Of a stretch of 64,000 nucleotides of DNA, positions 24,773-29,725 are shown in pieces. A model generated the notes under the pieces. The model did not search any database and was not told the origin of the DNA. It saw nothing but the letters and a program-made list of their open reading frames with translations. The translations under genes were made by a program, and so were the position numbers. Location: the NCBI GenBank assembly GCA_001917175.1, contig MNTV01000026.1, forward strand, positions 817-64,816, given 5' to 3'. Each line of letters begins with the position of its first letter. Positions within the stretch are counted from its first letter, which is position 1. The stretch is from Azospirillum sp. 51_20 (GTDB taxonomy: Bacteria; Pseudomonadota; Alphaproteobacteria; RF32; CAG-239).

Positions 24773-24942
24773 TTATGGAGAGGTGACTGTCCGGTTCGTA
24801 ATTCCGCAGATCTTCCGAGCCAACGTAATTTTATCGGGAATTGTCCCTGGCAGGATCGTGGTCCTGTTATATGATGCCCACCTATTGAGATGCGGTTCGA
24901 GACAGAATGTACCTATACGGCCCGACGGTTCTCTCTTTTTTT
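24773..24942 (+). ncRNA. ssrS: 6S RNA candidate
   Basis: Lies directly downstream of zapA, the conserved proteobacterial position. TATAAT at 24761-24766. Closing helix GGAGAGG/CTCTCT plus CTGTCCGG/CCGACGG. CCGAGCCAACGUAAUUUUAUC resembles E. coli CUGAGCCGAUAUUUCAUAC. Ends in a T-run. Confidence 0.55.
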
Positions 24943-24995: not shown

Positions 24996-25790
24996 TTGAA
25001 GATCATTTATTTGGGCGACGTGGTCGGCCGGGCGGGAAGAGACGCCGTCTTAAACAACCTGCCGCTGATGCGGGAAAAATACAAGGCCGACGTAATTATC
25101 GTCAATGTTGAAAACGCCGCCCACGGCTTCGGCGTCACGCCGGGAATCGCCCGCGAGTTTCTGGAACGCGGCGCCGACGTTCTGACTACCGGCAACCATG
25201 TCTGGCAGCAGCGTGACATCATCCCTTTCTTAGACGAGTGCAAACGCATTGTCCGGCCGCTGAACTATCCCGACAGCGCACCCGGCCGCGGAGCGGTCGA
25301 ATTTGAACTGGCCAGCGGCAAAAAAATTCTTGTTACCCAGGTGCTGGGACGAGTCTTCATGGACAGCGTTGACAACCCCGCGTTTGTCCTCGACCGGCTG
25401 TTAAAGAACTATGCGCTCGGCCGCAACATTGCCGCCGTTTTCGTCGACGTCCATGCCGAATCGACCTCGGAAAAGCTTTCTCTCGGACACTATCTCGACG
25501 GCCGGGTTTCCATTGTTGCCGGCACCCACACCCACATCCCCACCGCCGACGCCCATATCTTAAACGGCGGCACCGCCTACATCACCGACGTCGGCATGTG
25601 CGGTAATTACGACTCCGTGCTCGGCTTTGACAAACAGGCGCCGATCGACCGGCTGTGCCAGCGTTACAACGGCAACCGGCTGGAAGTCTGCCGCAGCGGC
25701 GGCACCGTATGGGGAATCGCGGTTCAAACCGACGACAAAACCGGTCTGGCCGAAACAATCGAACAATTCAGCTTAAAAGGAAACGAATGA
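24996..25790 (+). CDS. YmdB-like (TIGR00282-type) metallophosphoesterase
   Basis: TTG start. MKIIYLGDVVGRAGRDAV...VIIVNVENAAHGFGVTP...TTGNHVW...GTHTHIPTAD. Confidence 0.85.
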   Translation: MKIIYLGDVVGRAGRDAVLNNLPLMREKYKADVIIVNVENAAHGFGVTPGIAREFLERGADVLTTGNHVWQQRDIIPFLDECKRIVRPLNYPDSAPGRGAVEFELASGKKILVTQVLGRVFMDSVDNPAFVLDRLLKNYALGRNIAAVFVDVHAESTSEKLSLGHYLDGRVSIVAGTHTHIPTADAHILNGGTAYITDVGMCGNYDSVLGFDKQAPIDRLCQRYNGNRLEVCRSGGTVWGIAVQTDDKTGLAETIEQFSLKGNE

Positions 25791-26239
25791 TGGCGGAAAA
25801 GGAATATATCAGCTACGAGGAAATCAACAGCGAATGCAAAAAACTGGCTTATATTCTTGCCGGATGCGGTTTTAAACGCATTATCGCGGTCGCCCGCGGC
25901 GGGCTGGTGCCGGCCTGCGTTCTCGCCCAGTTTCTCGGCATCAGGGAAATCAGCAGCATCTCGCTGGCCAGCTATGAGGGCGAAGCCCGCAGCGAACTCA
26001 AATGTCTGGTGCCGCCCGACATCCGCATGGACGAGGAAACGCTGTTCGTGGATGACCTTTACGATTCCGGCAGCACTTACCGTTATTTGAAAGAAAAATA
26101 TCCGCGGGCCAAAATCGCCGTTTTGTTCAGCAAAGACCCGGCAGCCGAGCTTGACTTTCCGGCCGCGCCGAAAGTTCCCGGCCGCTGGCTGGTATTCCCC
26201 TGGGAATTTGAACCGATTGAAAGCAGCAGCGGCAAATAG
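25787..26239 (+). CDS. gpt: xanthine-guanine phosphoribosyltransferase
   Basis: IIAVARGGLVPACVLAQFLGI...LFVDDLYDSGST...WLVFPWE parallels E. coli Gpt. The start overlaps the upstream stop (ATGATG). Confidence 0.8.
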   Translation: MMAEKEYISYEEINSECKKLAYILAGCGFKRIIAVARGGLVPACVLAQFLGIREISSISLASYEGEARSELKCLVPPDIRMDEETLFVDDLYDSGSTYRYLKEKYPRAKIAVLFSKDPAAELDFPAAPKVPGRWLVFPWEFEPIESSSGK

Positions 26240-26253
26240 TTTTCGTTTTTCCG

Positions 26254-26281
26254 GACACGGGCGGATTTCCCCGTCTTTTTT
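26254..26281 (+). terminator. rho-independent terminator of gpt
   Basis: gac(ac)ggg ... cccgtc followed by tttttt. Confidence 0.55.
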
Positions 26282-26314
26282 CAAAAATTCCCCGCAGAAA
26301 GAACAACTTTCCGC

Positions 26315-26343
26315 TTGTCAAAAACCGGTGTTTTCTTTAATAT
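26315..26343 (+). promoter_or_regulatory. sigma70-type promoter P1
   Basis: TTGTCA(26315-26320), 17-nt spacer, TAATAT(26338-26343). Confidence 0.55.
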
Positions 26344-26349
26344 CAGTTC

Positions 26350-26524
26350 TGCATCCGGGAGGCCGAATGCGGAGTGTCAGAGCTCCTTCATACAAAATAA
26401 TATCCCCTGAAAGAGGGAGATGCTGAAATAAGCGCGCTTTCAAGCGTGACGAATAAGGTGTACTGTATTGTATGAACAGTTCTGAACTCCCTCACCTTGA
26501 ATTTATCAAGGTGAGTTTTGTTTT
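26350..26524 (+). ncRNA. candidate structured sRNA, copy 1
   Basis: 5' hairpin gcatccgg-gagg-ccgaatgc (26351-26370). GAGCUCCUUC at 26380-26389. Intrinsic terminator ctcaccttga-attta-tcaaggtgag (26491-26515) plus a T-run. Confidence 0.5.
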
Positions 26525-26577
26525 AACCGAAGGTAAATAAGCAAAACGAGGAGTGGCTGGAGGAAAAAAGAAATCTC

Positions 26578-26606
26578 TTGCCAACGGGCGGCAATTTCTT
26601 TAATAT
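26578..26606 (+). promoter_or_regulatory. sigma70-type promoter P2 (paralogue of P1)
   Basis: TTGCCA(26578-26583), 17-nt spacer, TAATAT(26601-26606). The sequence from -15 through the first hairpin is nearly identical to P1/copy 1. Confidence 0.55.
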
Positions 26607-26612
26607 CAGCCC

Positions 26613-26774
26613 TGCATCCGGGAGGCCGGATGCGGTGTCTAACAAACATCTTCAACGTAAAAATCCTTCTTCGGAAGGAGTGCCGGTAATATGCCGAATA
26701 ACGGCGACTGCATACGTTGACAGTTTTTGAGCTCCTTCCGCCTAAGGGTTTTCCCCGGGCGGTTTTGTTTTTTT
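26613..26774 (+). ncRNA. candidate structured sRNA copy 2, or terminator-containing leader of the downstream small ORF
   Basis: Perfect 5' hairpin gcatccgg-gagg-ccggatgc (26614-26633). UUCG hairpin tccttc-ttcg-gaagga (26664-26679). GAGCUCCUUC at 26729-26738 abuts the terminator (26738-26762) and its T-run (26763-26774). Confidence 0.5.
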
Positions 26775-26805
26775 ACCATAAACAAAATCAAGGGAGTTTC
26801 AAACT

Positions 26806-27075
26806 ATGTTTAACAACAAAATCAAAAAAATAATCGGACAAGAGCTGCACAAATACCGCTGTGACCGTTTTCTGCCCTGGTATGTGATCGACAACATGGA
26901 GATAGGCAGCGTGCGCAAATGGGAACATTACCGTCATCTGCTTGAGTTTTACGGCAAAGAGCTCAAAATCGAACTGATTGAGAGAAGCGGGCGCATCGGG
27001 AACGGTACCGTGAAAAACGACGGCGGAAACAACCGGCGAGAAACAATGAAAAGATCGGACACGTCCGAAAGATGA
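26806..27075 (+). CDS. hypothetical small protein (faint XRE-HTH-like pattern)
   Basis: 89 codons with RBS AGGGAG 9 nt upstream. Only 31 nt separate it from the copy-2 terminator, so no separate promoter is visible. Confidence 0.4.
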   Translation: MFNNKIKKIIGQELHKYRCDRFLPWYVIDNMEIGSVRKWEHYRHLLEFYGKELKIELIERSGRIGNGTVKNDGGNNRRETMKRSDTSER

Positions 27076-27315
27076 AACAAAGAAAAAAAGCAAAAAAACA
27101 GCGAGAGAGAGAAAGAGGGAAAGATAAGAAAAAACAAGGAAAGGAAAGAAAAAGAAAAAAGATAAAGACAAATAAAGAGAAAAAACAAGAAAAAAGCAAA
27201 AAACGGAAAGAATAAACGAGTGAATAAAAGTAAAGAAGAAAAAAAAGGAGTAAGCAAGAGAGAAAGGAGAAGAAGGAAGAAGGAAAAAGGAGAAACAAAA
27301 AGACAAGAGAAAAAA
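27067..27315 (+). other. ~250-nt polypurine (A/G) tract
   Basis: By hand count about 22 pyrimidines in 249 nt on the + strand (about 91% purine). Contains repeated AAGGAG/GGAA/GAAGAAGGAAGAAGGA motifs. Lies between the small-ORF stop and a terminator. Confidence 0.9.
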
Positions 27316-27341: not shown

Positions 27342-27380
27342 GACACGGCCGGACGAAACCGTCCGTGTCATTTTTTGTTT
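27342..27380 (+). terminator. rho-independent terminator
   Basis: gacacgg(c)cgg-acgaaa-ccg(t)ccgtgtc (27342-27369) followed by ttttttgttt. Confidence 0.7.
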
Positions 27381-27410: not shown

Positions 27411-27790
27411 GCGGCCGGTCAAGAAATTCCCGAACCGGGCATTTGCTGCCGGAAACGGTTAATGCTGCCTGCGGGAACCGGCGGAAGTTTATTTCCGCCC
27501 GGACTTCAAAACCTGTTCGCCCTTTCAAGGGGGAAAAATCTTTTCGCACCGGCCGGCAACCGGTTTACGTAACTCCCGAACCGGGCATTTGCTGCCGGAA
27601 ACGGTTAATGCCGCCTGCGGGAACCGGCGGAAGTTTATTTTTGCCCGACTTTTAAACCTGTTCGGCCTCTCAAGGTGGCAAAATCTTTCCGCACCGGCCG
27701 GCAACCGGTTTACGTAACTCCCGAACCGGGCATTTGCTGCCGGAAACGGTTAATGCTGCCTGCGGGAACCGGCAACCGGTTTATTGCGCC
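27411..27790. repeat. 145-146-bp tandem repeat, about 2.6 copies
   Basis: The cccgaaccgggcatttgctgccggaaacggttaatgc motif recurs at 27429, 27575 and 27720. Copies are over 90% identical. The last copy overlaps the stop codon of the J-domain gene. Confidence 0.9.
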
Positions 27791-28938
27791 GCAACGATTT
27801 TGCTTTCTTCCGGTATCGGATTACCGCGGCCTTTTTCCAACTCAGATTCCCGGACAAAGCCCATTTCGCCGTTGTCAAGCATGATCCGGTACCATTTTTT
27901 GTCCGGCGTAAATCCGGTAACGCGAACGGTATGTCCTTTTTCCGTCGTCGTCATCACATCAAACTTGTCGCCCGGCCCGTACATCACTTTGCCTTCGCCG
28001 GTCAGGTGATAGAGCATTTTTTCGTCATAGACGTCGACGGGAATGTCAAAGATTTTGGAAACCACCACGTCGTCAAAAGTTTCTCCGCCGTCGTTGAACG
28101 TCACTTTCTGGAAATAGGTGATTTCATGCTGCTTGGTCATATATTGCCGGAATCCGCCGAAAACGGAATTGACGACCGGAGAAAGCAAAATCATGACCAG
28201 CACGAACGGCACCAACAGATGCGCCGTTTTCAAACGCAGCCAGCGCCAGCGGGGCAACGGCGGAATTTTGCAGTTCAGCCGGGCGATAAAGCGCTCAACC
28301 AGCGGCCGCTGTTCCGGCAAAGCATATTCCAGCGCCTGCGCGGCGGAATACGCCGCCTGACGATCCTTGTTTTCCTGATGATAGGCCAGCGCATTGTGCA
28401 GCAAAAGAGTCAGGTTGTCCTGCCGGTTGCTTCCGGTTTTGCGAAAATTTGCGGCAATCGCACGGCAGTTGGCGGCAAAGGCCTTAATTCCCCACCAACC
28501 GGCCAGCCAGTTGACAAGAGAACATTTCAGAATTTCGTTAAAAGCCTGTTTTTCGCTGCAAATCAGGCGTTCTTCCCGATCGGTGCATTTGATCAGCCTG
28601 CCGGTCACGTAACGCAGGTCAAACACCCGCACGTCGGGATTTTCCGCTTCCATCCGGTCTTTGAAAATGCTCAGCGCATCCATCTGCGGAAAATCGTCCT
28701 TCCCGTAGACACAGGCCAGCAAATCGTAGGTCAGGCGCTTTTCCTCATCCTGCAAAACGTCATAAGCCACCGAAATTTTCTGGAAATGCTCCATCGCGTT
28801 TTCCGCCTTATTGTAGTCGGGGTGCCATTCTTTGGCGCGGTCGCGGTAGCTCAGCTTGATCGTCCGCGCGTCGGCGTCGGGCGAAACTTCCAAAACCTGA
28901 TAGTATTCCAACGGGTCACGATTGTACATTTTTTTCAT
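27781..28938 (-). CDS. J-domain (DnaJ-like) membrane protein with C-terminal SH3-like domain
   Basis: J-domain YYQVLEVSPDADARTIKLSYRDRAKEWHPDYNK (HPD present). Hydrophobic segment LLVPFVLVMILLSPVVNSVF. C-terminal GHTVRVTGFTPDKKWYRIMLDNGEMGFV. Start ambiguous (ATG 28938 or 28929) and overlaps the flhG stop. Confidence 0.8.
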   Translation of the reverse strand: MKKMYNRDPLEYYQVLEVSPDADARTIKLSYRDRAKEWHPDYNKAENAMEHFQKISVAYDVLQDEEKRLTYDLLACVYGKDDFPQMDALSIFKDRMEAENPDVRVFDLRYVTGRLIKCTDREERLICSEKQAFNEILKCSLVNWLAGWWGIKAFAANCRAIAANFRKTGSNRQDNLTLLLHNALAYHQENKDRQAAYSAAQALEYALPEQRPLVERFIARLNCKIPPLPRWRWLRLKTAHLLVPFVLVMILLSPVVNSVFGGFRQYMTKQHEITYFQKVTFNDGGETFDDVVVSKIFDIPVDVYDEKMLYHLTGEGKVMYGPGDKFDVMTTTEKGHTVRVTGFTPDKKWYRIMLDNGEMGFVRESELEKGRGNPIPEESKIVAAQ

Positions 28939-29725
28939 CCTGTAAAATTTTTCTTGCAATTTCGATTACGTCCGCGGCCGCCTCCGAAGTCGGATAACGG
29001 CTGATGAGCGGCATCTGGTTGCGGATGGCATCGCGTACGCGCGCATCGCGGCGAACAATCCCTAAAAGCGGCGGCGAGATTTTGAGAAAAGTCTGGCAGG
29101 CCTTTTGCAGAATATCATAGGTCTGACGGCCTTCGCGCAGAGTGTCCGCCTGGTTGACCACGATCTCCAACCGGCATTTCGGGTACTGCATGGCCATCAG
29201 TTTGACAAAGGCATAGGCGTCGGTCAGGGCCGTCGGTTCGTCGGTGCAGACCACGATCACCCGTCCCGACATGCCCGACAAAATACGGATGGATTTTTCC
29301 ACCCCTGCCCCCATGTCGAGAATCACCTTGTCGTACGCGCCGGACAAAAGCGCCAGGTCTTCGGCCAGAATCTGCAAACGGCCGACCGGCATCGAAGCCA
29401 GCCCGGCCGAGCCCGAACGTCCGGCAATGACGTCAAAACGGCATTTGTCACAATAGTGAACCACCTGGTTTAAGGTGGTGGTTCCGGTAACCACGCTGCC
29501 CAGATCAAACGGCACCATCAGCCCCAGCTGAACATCGATGTTGGCCATACCCAGATCGCCGTCGAACAACAGGGTTTTCTGCCGCAGACCGCTCAAAGCA
29601 TGCGCCAGAGTGATCGAAAACCAGGTTTTGCCGACCCCGCCCTTGCCCGAGGCGACCGCAATCATCCGATCGGCTTCAAACCGCCGCGGACTGCAGATTC
29701 CCGCCGTCAAGTCTTCTTCCCGCAT
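28916..29725 (-). CDS. flhG: MinD/ParA-type ATPase FlhG (YlxH/FleN)
   Basis: Deviant Walker A IAVASGKGGVGKTWFSITLA and LLFDGDLGMANIDVQLG. Located directly after flhF. Confidence 0.85.
   Translation of the reverse strand: MREEDLTAGICSPRRFEADRMIAVASGKGGVGKTWFSITLAHALSGLRQKTLLFDGDLGMANIDVQLGLMVPFDLGSVVTGTTTLNQVVHYCDKCRFDVIAGRSGSAGLASMPVGRLQILAEDLALLSGAYDKVILDMGAGVEKSIRILSGMSGRVIVVCTDEPTALTDAYAFVKLMAMQYPKCRLEIVVNQADTLREGRQTYDILQKACQTFLKISPPLLGIVRRDARVRDAIRNQMPLISRYPTSEAAADVIEIARKILQDEKNVQS

Follow-up and report, generated by a model that had tools for sequence, protein, structure and literature searches.

Tandem Brt-like RNA units in Azospirillum sp. 51_20 belong to a multicopy structured RNA family with a possible leader role

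The closest described counterparts of the RNA units analysed here are the Brt RNAs of Bartonella. Nine of them, 194-203 nt long, occur in B. henselae, each upstream of a poorly transcribed XRE gene (trp) (PMC5387305); their copy number varies between species, and they have been called genus-specific, with BLAST similarity as the criterion (Tu et al. 2016, PMC5387305). Deletion of the 3' stem-loop of Brt1 raises trp1 transcription, a response of Brt to heme has been suggested (PMC8070961), and antisense knock-down of Brt1 altered badA expression in Bartonella (PMC5387305). Here we describe two head-to-tail RNA units in a 64,000-nt stretch of Azospirillum sp. 51_20 (assembly GCA_001917175.1, contig MNTV01000026.1, positions 817-64,816), referred to below as the window. 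The units lie between a phosphoribosyltransferase gene (end 26239) and an 89-codon open reading frame (ORF; 26806-27075). Judged by their sequences, they and their relatives appear to be built like the Brt RNAs, with the same layout and the same logic of complementary boxes. With a probability that we put at roughly 0.55, such units are self-contained structured-RNA genes of ~170 nt that belong to a Brt-like family, each serving as an off-by-default leader that releases a small RNA.

Unit 1 occupies 26315-26524 and unit 2 occupies 26578-26774. In each, a sigma-70-like promoter is followed by a 5' hairpin and a structured core, with an intrinsic terminator at the end. A preliminary description, made from the letters of the window alone, had placed promoters at 26315-26343 and 26578-26606 and terminators at 26491-26524 and 26738-26774, and had noted 8-bp 5' hairpins with a GAGG loop and a UCCUUC-UUCG-GAAGGA hairpin in copy 2; all of these are present, the 5' hairpins at 26351-26370 and 26614-26633 and the copy 2 hairpin at 26664-26679, and its view of the units as paralogous, self-contained promoter-RNA-terminator genes is supported, the unit length being ~165-180 nt. 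The 5' hairpin, GCAUCCGG-GAGG-CCGRAUGC in both units, is indeed shared; the interior, described as diverged, can nevertheless be aligned, so that the units match end to end with a mean column identity of 76%, well beyond the hairpin alone. The 24-nt hairpin motif is not a chance occurrence, because it was found twice in the window and not once in 100 shuffles of the window; at up to 3 mismatches it has 15 matches in the whole 1.98-Mb, 41-contig genome.

What had been seen as a tandem pair, real as it is, undercounts the family. A search of this genome with a covariance model (R1) built from 12 complete copies detected 21 copies. Most belong to tandem arrays, in which 2-4 promoter-RNA-terminator units follow one another without an intervening gene and with a period of ~255-290 nt. 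Contig C24 carries at least 4 units and contig C41 carries 3, while contigs C39 and C14 and the window have 2-3 each; single copies occur too, and a promoter-like site is present at each copy. Several copies lie at contig ends, so the true copy number is probably higher. Two subtypes can be distinguished: subtype A resembles unit 1 and has the box ACUCCCUC, and subtype B resembles unit 2, has GCUCCUUCC and is usually the last unit before a gene. A divergent long form precedes a PEGA lipoprotein gene (C41:52492-52668).

Outside this genome, 61 related genomes were searched with R1; 32 gave matches, and a single genome could hold as many as 32 copies. The positive relatives represent most of the genera sampled in the family, besides one genome from another family of the same order. 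In an even sample of the class, matches at E <=1e-5 were found in 10 of 401 genomes, which belong to 8 families and are all 0.9-2.3 Mb in size. The ZapA protein encoded in the window is present in 5259 blocks of an assembly collection, and all of those shown are metagenome assemblies. An Rfam scan, which the preliminary description had proposed, matched the units to no described family: with Rfam 15 at gathering thresholds, the whole window gave only 6S RNA and one tRNA, and the best result of a sensitive scan of 26200-26900 was sRNA-Xcc1, at 23 bits against a cut-off of 53 bits (E 0.19). A blastn search of unit 1 against a plasmid collection gave no match.

Minimum free energy (MFE) folds of three units have a common topology, with z scores of -4.2, -3.1 and -4.1 against shuffles. 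From 5' to 3', the predicted fold consists of the P1 hairpin, a rod formed by P2 and P3, a three-way junction with P4 and the P5/P6 arm, box d and the terminator. In P2, the 5' GGAGU, a G bulge and 8 bp pair with 8 bp and ACUCC; a small CC/C loop divides P2 from P3, which has 7-9 bp. P4 pairs CUCC with GGGAG, and the P5/P6 arm holds a conserved internal loop (GAUAUAAG/CGAAUAA). In an alignment of 52 units from ~35 genomes (A3), aligned to R1, standard pairs fill 97.1% of the cells and two-sided changes occur at 26 of the 28 modelled pairs, as against 31-45% paired cells in controls with partners slid by 1-3 columns. Paralogues of a single genome can have P2 and P3 helices of wholly different sequence that retain pairing: the 8 type-A units of this genome have 5 distinct P2 cores and 7 distinct P3 cores, all fully paired. 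Comparison across relatives, which had also been proposed, thus shows a predicted fold that is conserved and covarying. The GAGG loop, by contrast, had been taken as a shared mark of the units and is conserved among close relatives only; elsewhere P1 is a hairpin of any sequence.

Five mutually complementary boxes are distributed along this fold. Box a is the 5' GGAGU, box b (CUCC) is the 5' strand of P4, box c (GGGAG) is the 3' strand of P4, box d (ACUCCC) lies between P2 and the terminator, and box e is the ribosome-binding site (RBS) of the downstream gene, GGGAGUU. The parts of the two units are as follows.

26315-26343, + strand: unit 1 promoter, TTGTCA-17-TAATAT; locus-specific, kept in other strains
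26351-26370, + strand: unit 1 P1 5' hairpin, GCAUCCGG-GAGG-CCGAAUGC, with one C.A mismatch; P1 pairs covary across relatives
26371-26395, + strand: unit 1 box a GGAGU, P2 5' strand UCAGAGCU, CC loop, P3 5' strand UUCAUACAA
26403-26420, + strand: unit 1 hairpin P4, with box b UCCCCU and box c GAGGGAG (26413-26419)
26420-26461, + strand: unit 1 P5/P6 arm, with conserved internal loop GAAAUAAG / CGAAUAA
26462-26493, + strand: unit 1 ACUG, P3 3' strand, CAGU, P2 3' strand, box d ACUCCCUC (26486-26493)
26491-26524, + strand: unit 1 intrinsic terminator, 10-bp stem then UUUUGUUUU
26541-26554, + strand: inter-unit spacer, A-tract and RBS-like GAGGAGU retained, no gene after
26578-26606, + strand: unit 2 promoter, TTGCCA-17-TAATAT
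26614-26633, + strand: unit 2 P1 5' hairpin, 8 bp, GAGG loop
26634-26659, + strand: unit 2 box a GGUGU, P2 5' strand CUAACAAAC, P3 5' strand CAACGUA
26664-26680, + strand: unit 2 hairpin P4, UCCUUC-UUCG-GAAGGA (26664-26679), with box c GGAAGGAG (26673-26680)
26682-26706, + strand: unit 2 P5 arm, GCCGG ... CGGCG with UAAUAU / GAAUAA; P6 reduced
26707-26739, + strand: unit 2 ACUG, P3 3' strand, CAG, P2 3' strand GUUUUUGAG, box d CUCCUUCC (26732-26739)
26738-26774, + strand: unit 2 intrinsic terminator, CCGCC..GGGCGG then T-run
26780-26798, + strand: A-tract AAACAAAA, complementary to the U-tract, then RBS box e AAGGGAGUU
26806-27075, + strand: 89-codon ORF, decayed small regulator of the XRE helix-turn-helix (HTH) type, with an 11-codon in-frame loss relative to the 100-aa allele

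The preliminary description had noted GAGCTCCTTC in both units as an anti-Shine-Dalgarno (anti-SD) motif. It is present at 26380-26389 and 26729-26738, but the two GAGCUCCUUC strings do not occupy homologous positions: the one in unit 1 lies in the P2/P3 internal loop and the one in unit 2 forms the pre-terminator box, whose equivalent in unit 1 is ACUCCCUC at 26486-26493. Nor are these motifs free generic seeds, as most CUCC motifs are base-paired in the predicted fold, the 5' GGAGU with the 3' ACUCC and, in P4, CUCC with GGGAG.

Box d differs by lineage (ACUCCC, AGCUCC, ACAUCC, ACUUCC, ACUUCU), and boxes c and e change alongside. For c:d on A3, 90.9% of the cells are paired, compared with 49-63% in slid controls, and 41 cells show double changes, compared with 13.5 in shuffles; these values, like those for d:e below, are inflated by kinship of the sequences. 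In the window, the c:d helix has 7 bp for unit 1 (GAGGGAG:CUCCCUC) and 8 bp for unit 2 (GGAAGGAG:CUCCUUCC); in long forms it invades the terminator stem over 7-9 bp of the 5' half, as in GACUGGAAG with CUUCCAGUC. To examine the d:e pairing, 31 distinct units followed by an ORF were scored by their longest Watson-Crick run, with the aligned box on one side and the 24 nt upstream of the start codon on the other. RNAduplex on long windows had been too noisy for this purpose (z -2.1), and this exact-run statistic on aligned boxes was used instead. The mean longest run was 5.87 for cognate and 4.54 for non-cognate combinations, a value reached in 0 of 50000 permutations; a cruder test gave z = 5. 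The part of the anti-SD proposal that stands is therefore pairing with the RBS, and specifically with the extended RBS of the cognate gene. The match goes past the SD core, as in CGAACAUCC with GGAUGUUCG and UAACUUCC with GGAAGUUA. Four classes are seen (ACUCCC/GGGAGU, AGCUCC/GGAGCU, ACAUCC/GGAUGU and ACUUCC/GGAAGU), and even when kinship is allowed for, the box d classes appear to represent at least three independent compensatory switches. In MFE folds of the read-through RNA, box d pairs with the RBS, and two hairpins are enclosed by this pairing: that of the terminator and another in which the U-tract pairs with the downstream A-tract, which is conserved.

In two loci of genome G060 (L041 and L048), box d is AACUUCUGG and its perfect complement CCAGAAGUU lies ~35 nt past the terminator with no ORF after it, a pairing of the d:e type without an obvious gene.

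By the nucleotide similarity that has been used to define Brt, the window family would not be included, and sequence and profile searches give no link between the two. Brt sequences, which have no Rfam match, were located on plasmid pBGR3 via the published probe sequence, and more than 120 Bartonella loci (0.92 Mb) were compared. A search of this genome with a Brt hidden Markov model (nhmmer) gave one chance match, in a terminator (C30:89196-89368), the reciprocal search of the 0.92 Mb of Bartonella loci with the family model gave no match, and R1 found nothing below E 0.06 on pBGR3. The likeness lies in architecture. Each family consists of multicopy RNAs, ~170-200 nt long, that have promoters of their own and occur in tandem arrays, the window units being somewhat shorter than Brt, and the two families have the CTTGCCAA promoter start in common. 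In both, a promoter-less small XRE-type gene follows directly, 15-30 nt downstream, and some of these genes have decayed to pseudogenes. The Brt layout is a 5' hairpin, GGGA with a variable P2, a variable P3, and CUGA-P3'-UCAGU-P2'-ACUCCC; common to Brt and the window family are the 5' hairpin, the order CUG-P3'-CAGU-P2'-ACUCC, hypervariable but covarying P2 and P3 helices, and a closing helix of the form GGRR...CUCC. The 3' strand of the Brt P4 hairpin (UCCCGG-GAUU-CCGGGAG) is complementary to box d (CUCCCGG), as box c is in the window family, and joint c/d variants are occasionally seen, for example CCGGGGGC with GCCCCCGG. There are also differences: the Brt junction has one extra hairpin and another P5 internal loop, the last Brt hairpin lacks a U-tract whereas the window units end in a canonical intrinsic terminator, and the window family also precedes genes for outer-membrane proteins (OMPs), lipoproteins and others that are not of the XRE type.

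This shared layout was expressed as a descriptor that reads, in order, GGRR, the 5' strands of two 7-bp helices, CUG, the 3' strand of helix two, CAGY, the 3' strand of helix one and CUCC, and that tolerates no more than one non-pair overall; it replaced an energy-based rod scan that gave too many false positives in the reversed control. Within the 0.92 Mb of Bartonella loci, the descriptor found 118 sites, and at 106 of these the Brt probe sequence follows directly; it also picked out 8 units of this genome and 12 from loci of relatives, with 0-1 in reversed or shuffled controls. Since it was written after both families had been seen, these counts indicate a shared specific architecture and do not prove common descent. 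In three loci of Bartonella grahamii and Bartonella spp. (L057, L100, L102), Brt probe sites lie ~375 nt apart. This spacing is too close for an intervening trp gene, so Bartonella too has tandem Brt arrays.

The genes behind the units are of several kinds. Gene-proximal units of this genome precede small proteins such as MKSKLHIKQKIGR.LGEYRRNHGIRLEHAAKQSGVPWQMIDQLELGS, which fall below the default Pfam threshold. At looser thresholds, members of an alignment of these proteins (A4) match Pfam HTH families (HTH_31 in 6 of 9, best E 2.5e-5), and a profile of nine small proteins matches solved XRE, HigA, DdrO and SinR structures with E values of 1e-7 to 1e-5. In other genera, the RNA is followed by genes for OMP beta-barrels (PF13505), a PEGA lipoprotein, a TM2/zinc-ribbon protein, an EcoRI-type methylase and a Trp-like HTH_3 regulator. 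Throughout, the start codon lies ~15-45 nt past the T-run, and the gene behind the last array unit, at a distance of 25-31 nt, has no promoter of its own.

For a unit and its downstream gene we regard an off-by-default leader role as most likely. In the default fold, box a would pair with d and box b with c, the terminator would form, and transcription would stop with release of a stable small RNA; in any read-through transcript, the RBS would be masked by d:e pairing. In the alternative fold, box c would pair with d and the base of the terminator stem, which would weaken termination and free the RBS together. The choice between the folds might be made by a ligand or protein at the conserved junction (GAUAUAAG/CGAAUAA, ACUG, CAGU), and upstream array units would add copies of the terminated RNA, whose box d could mask the same RBS in trans. 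The preliminary description had considered, as a fallback, that copy 2 is a terminator-containing leader, and this suggestion is supported, because the ATG of the ORF (26806) lies 31 nt past the T-run of unit 2, a gap too short for a promoter, and its RBS is complementary to the RNA.

Such a device would resemble terminating riboswitches and attenuators in that a conserved junction of several helices precedes pairings that exclude each other (b:c versus c:d; a:d versus d:e) and in combining a terminator with a masked RBS; the junction core is conserved, and the platform of terminator, c:d and d:e pairings shows covariation. Unlike in riboswitches, most of the RNA is a variable rod, the units, each with a promoter of its own, are stacked in arrays, and the gene set consists of regulators and surface proteins, not of a metabolic pathway; the downstream regulators, OMPs, lipoproteins and methylase do not point to a metabolite.

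Several observations weigh against this leader model. An intact rod keeps box c (at the junction) and box d (at the rod's base) apart within one molecule, so the switch would have to be decided during transcription or by unfolding of the rod; the energy penalty of a forced c:d pairing is +13.7 kcal/mol for unit 1 and +2.2 for unit 2. In the window, c:d overlaps the base of the terminator stem by only 3 nt (unit 1) and 2 nt (unit 2). The covariation counts come from one model-fitted alignment of related sequences and are biased towards structure, and both ends of the transcripts, like the read-through, are predictions. Furthermore, most array units precede another unit and not a gene, which a purely cis role leaves unexplained.

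It is this last point that bears on a rival explanation, in which the units are purely trans-acting sibling small RNAs (sRNAs), maybe dependent on Hfq, whose box d represses the XRE and other mRNAs with a matching extended RBS, the upstream position being incidental or autoregulatory. The gene-free arrays of 2-4 units fit this explanation, as do the strong terminators with U-tails and the presence of an Hfq gene in the genome; besides, box d of unit 1 (type A, AACUCCC) fits the ORF RBS GGGAGUU better than that of the adjacent unit 2, and in Bartonella the effect of Brt1 knock-down on badA points the same way (PMC5387305). In the predicted fold of the sRNA, however, most of box d is engaged by box a, the distance from the gene-proximal unit to the start codon is fixed at 25-31 nt across many genera and gene types with genes that lack a promoter of their own, which argues for a cis role, and the Brt1 3' stem-loop deletion acts in cis on trp1 (PMC8070961). 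A purely trans-acting function therefore seems rather unlikely to us, even if the gene-free arrays, the type-A box d match and Hfq keep a trans role alive, alone or in addition to the leader role.

The preliminary description had likened the units to the AbcR1/AbcR2 type of sRNA. The AbcR1/AbcR2 (alpha-r15) genes of Rhizobiales are likewise tandem sibling sRNA genes of Alphaproteobacteria with CUCC-type motifs, but the AbcR RNAs are ~110 nt long with exposed anti-SD loops, whereas the motifs of the window family lie mostly inside helices of a fold with a rod and a three-way junction, and neither AbcR nor any other Rfam family matched even in sensitive mode; the comparison has to be dropped. 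Qrr1-5, LhrC1-5 and the NsiR1 arrays are similar in comprising several near-identical sRNA genes, some in tandem, each with its own promoter and terminator; unlike the window family, those RNAs are short, have conserved single-stranded seeds and show no fixed-distance placement as leaders.

The abundance of SD-like elements, four to five GGAG/GGGAG per RNA including the P1 loop in this genus, together with the very high copy number per genome, would fit a protein-binding, sponge or structural RNA whose GGA/GGAG and CUCC boxes titrate a CsrA-like protein, ProQ or a ribosome component, gene linkage being secondary. We consider this explanation improbable. The P1 loop and the boxes vary by lineage and yet stay complementary, which argues for RNA-RNA pairing and not for a fixed protein motif. 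A CsrA-type sponge in particular is unlikely because no CsrA homologue (PF02599) was found in this genome, which is 96.9% complete. The candidate of a CsrA-sequestering sRNA was rejected on that ground and because the GGA boxes are mostly in stems.

The locus itself varies between strains. The same neighbourhood was found on six metagenome contigs, three with two units and three with one, and the first unit can be a different paralogue in other strains. The ORF encodes 100 aa in all six metagenome contigs and 89 aa in the window, where a strain-specific in-frame loss has removed QLKTVA.KTGI; this segment is the HTH itself. In unit 2, the 3' strand of P2 is mismatched to the 5' strand at 2 of 9 positions, the 5' strand being that of one allele (CUAACAAAC) and the 3' strand that of another (GUUUUUGAG); matched alleles elsewhere are CUAACAAAC/GUUUGUUAG and CUCAAAAAC/GUUUUUGAG. 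P2 strands from two alleles and swaps of units between strains show that the units recombine with each other, and an XRE gene without its HTH helix next to a mismatched, recombinant P2 means that the window locus is partly decayed. The XRE gene behind the single unit on contig C2 (C2:9760-) has in-frame stop codons and the copy on C39 has an internal deletion, so several of the regulated genes in this genome are pseudogenes. At this locus, modules turn over fast: the number and identity of the units, and even their P2 strands, differ between strains.

This variability, with one or two units by strain, swapped or chimeric units, many copies at contig ends and several pseudogenes among the downstream XRE genes, could also be read as the mark of selfish or neutral, recombination-prone tandem repeats of a mobile or satellite-like kind without regulatory function. 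We hold this to be very improbable: neither the ~20 helices' worth of compensatory changes across alphaproteobacterial families nor an intact promoter and terminator in each copy would be expected of such repeats, and no transposase or terminal repeats are associated with the units.

Beyond the leader reading, we can tentatively imagine that the window family and Brt form one ancient, uncatalogued class of effector-sensing leaders. The junction would be an aptamer or the site of a dedicated protein, the five-box platform would couple antitermination to release of the RBS, and the whole would serve XRE regulators and surface proteins (OMPs, lipoproteins, pilins) alike as their common switch in host-associated Alphaproteobacteria with reduced genomes; array units would act in trans as anti-RBS sRNAs as well, and the hypervariable rod would keep paralogues apart. 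We think this possible, but doubtful as a whole. If the leader reading and the kinship in design with Brt are right, the family, absent from Rfam despite its abundance, would be among the most abundant structured non-coding RNA classes in a group of bacteria that is very common in the human gut, with 20-30 copies per 1.5-2 Mb genome. It would connect these gut bacteria with the Brt/Trp circuit, which has until now been regarded as specific to one genus and has had no structural model. For that circuit, the covarying boxes b, c, d and e would supply a mechanism that can be tested, and its range would widen from XRE regulators to outer-membrane and lipoprotein genes.

Some copies depart from the standard form. 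The first array units at C14:134399-134572 and C39:14711-14883 lack the P2 3' strand and the terminator and run into a common unrelated 3' sequence (CAGTTCTCTTCACTTAGGCATCT...); they are variant or truncated members. The copies at C5:66895-67031 (- strand) and C4:56892-57049 (- strand) break inside P2 or the terminator and pass straight into XRE coding sequence, being either recombinant deletions or assembly chimeras at contig ends. Peptide-coding ORFs that run through units (for example C14:134035-134256) were also considered and rejected, because the helices covary and the frame crosses the promoter.

An inverted repeat, TTGCC-N7-GGCAA (26578-26594), overlaps with the -35 hexamer in the promoter of unit 2. 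Relatives have comparable repeats, TTGCCA-N5-TGGCAA and TTGCA-N5-TGCAA among them, and some copies have no repeat; the repeat could be an operator for the XRE protein.

In the neighbourhood of the units, a 6S RNA (RF00013, 63.4 bits; 24781-24935) directly follows zapA and is itself followed by a YmdB-like gene, the phosphoribosyltransferase gene and the RNA units. On the other side, directly after the ORF, there is a tract of ~250 nt that is roughly 90% purine (27067-27315) and ends at a terminator-like hairpin (27350-27365). Tracts of a similar GA-rich, low-complexity kind adjoin the arrays on C24 (~834-1700) and C41 (~25784-26300), where they are on the opposite side and strand relative to the array. 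Further downstream, a 145-bp tandem repeat (27428-27773; 2.4 copies, 94% matches) abuts the 3' end of a minus-strand DnaJ/SH3 gene (27781-28959).

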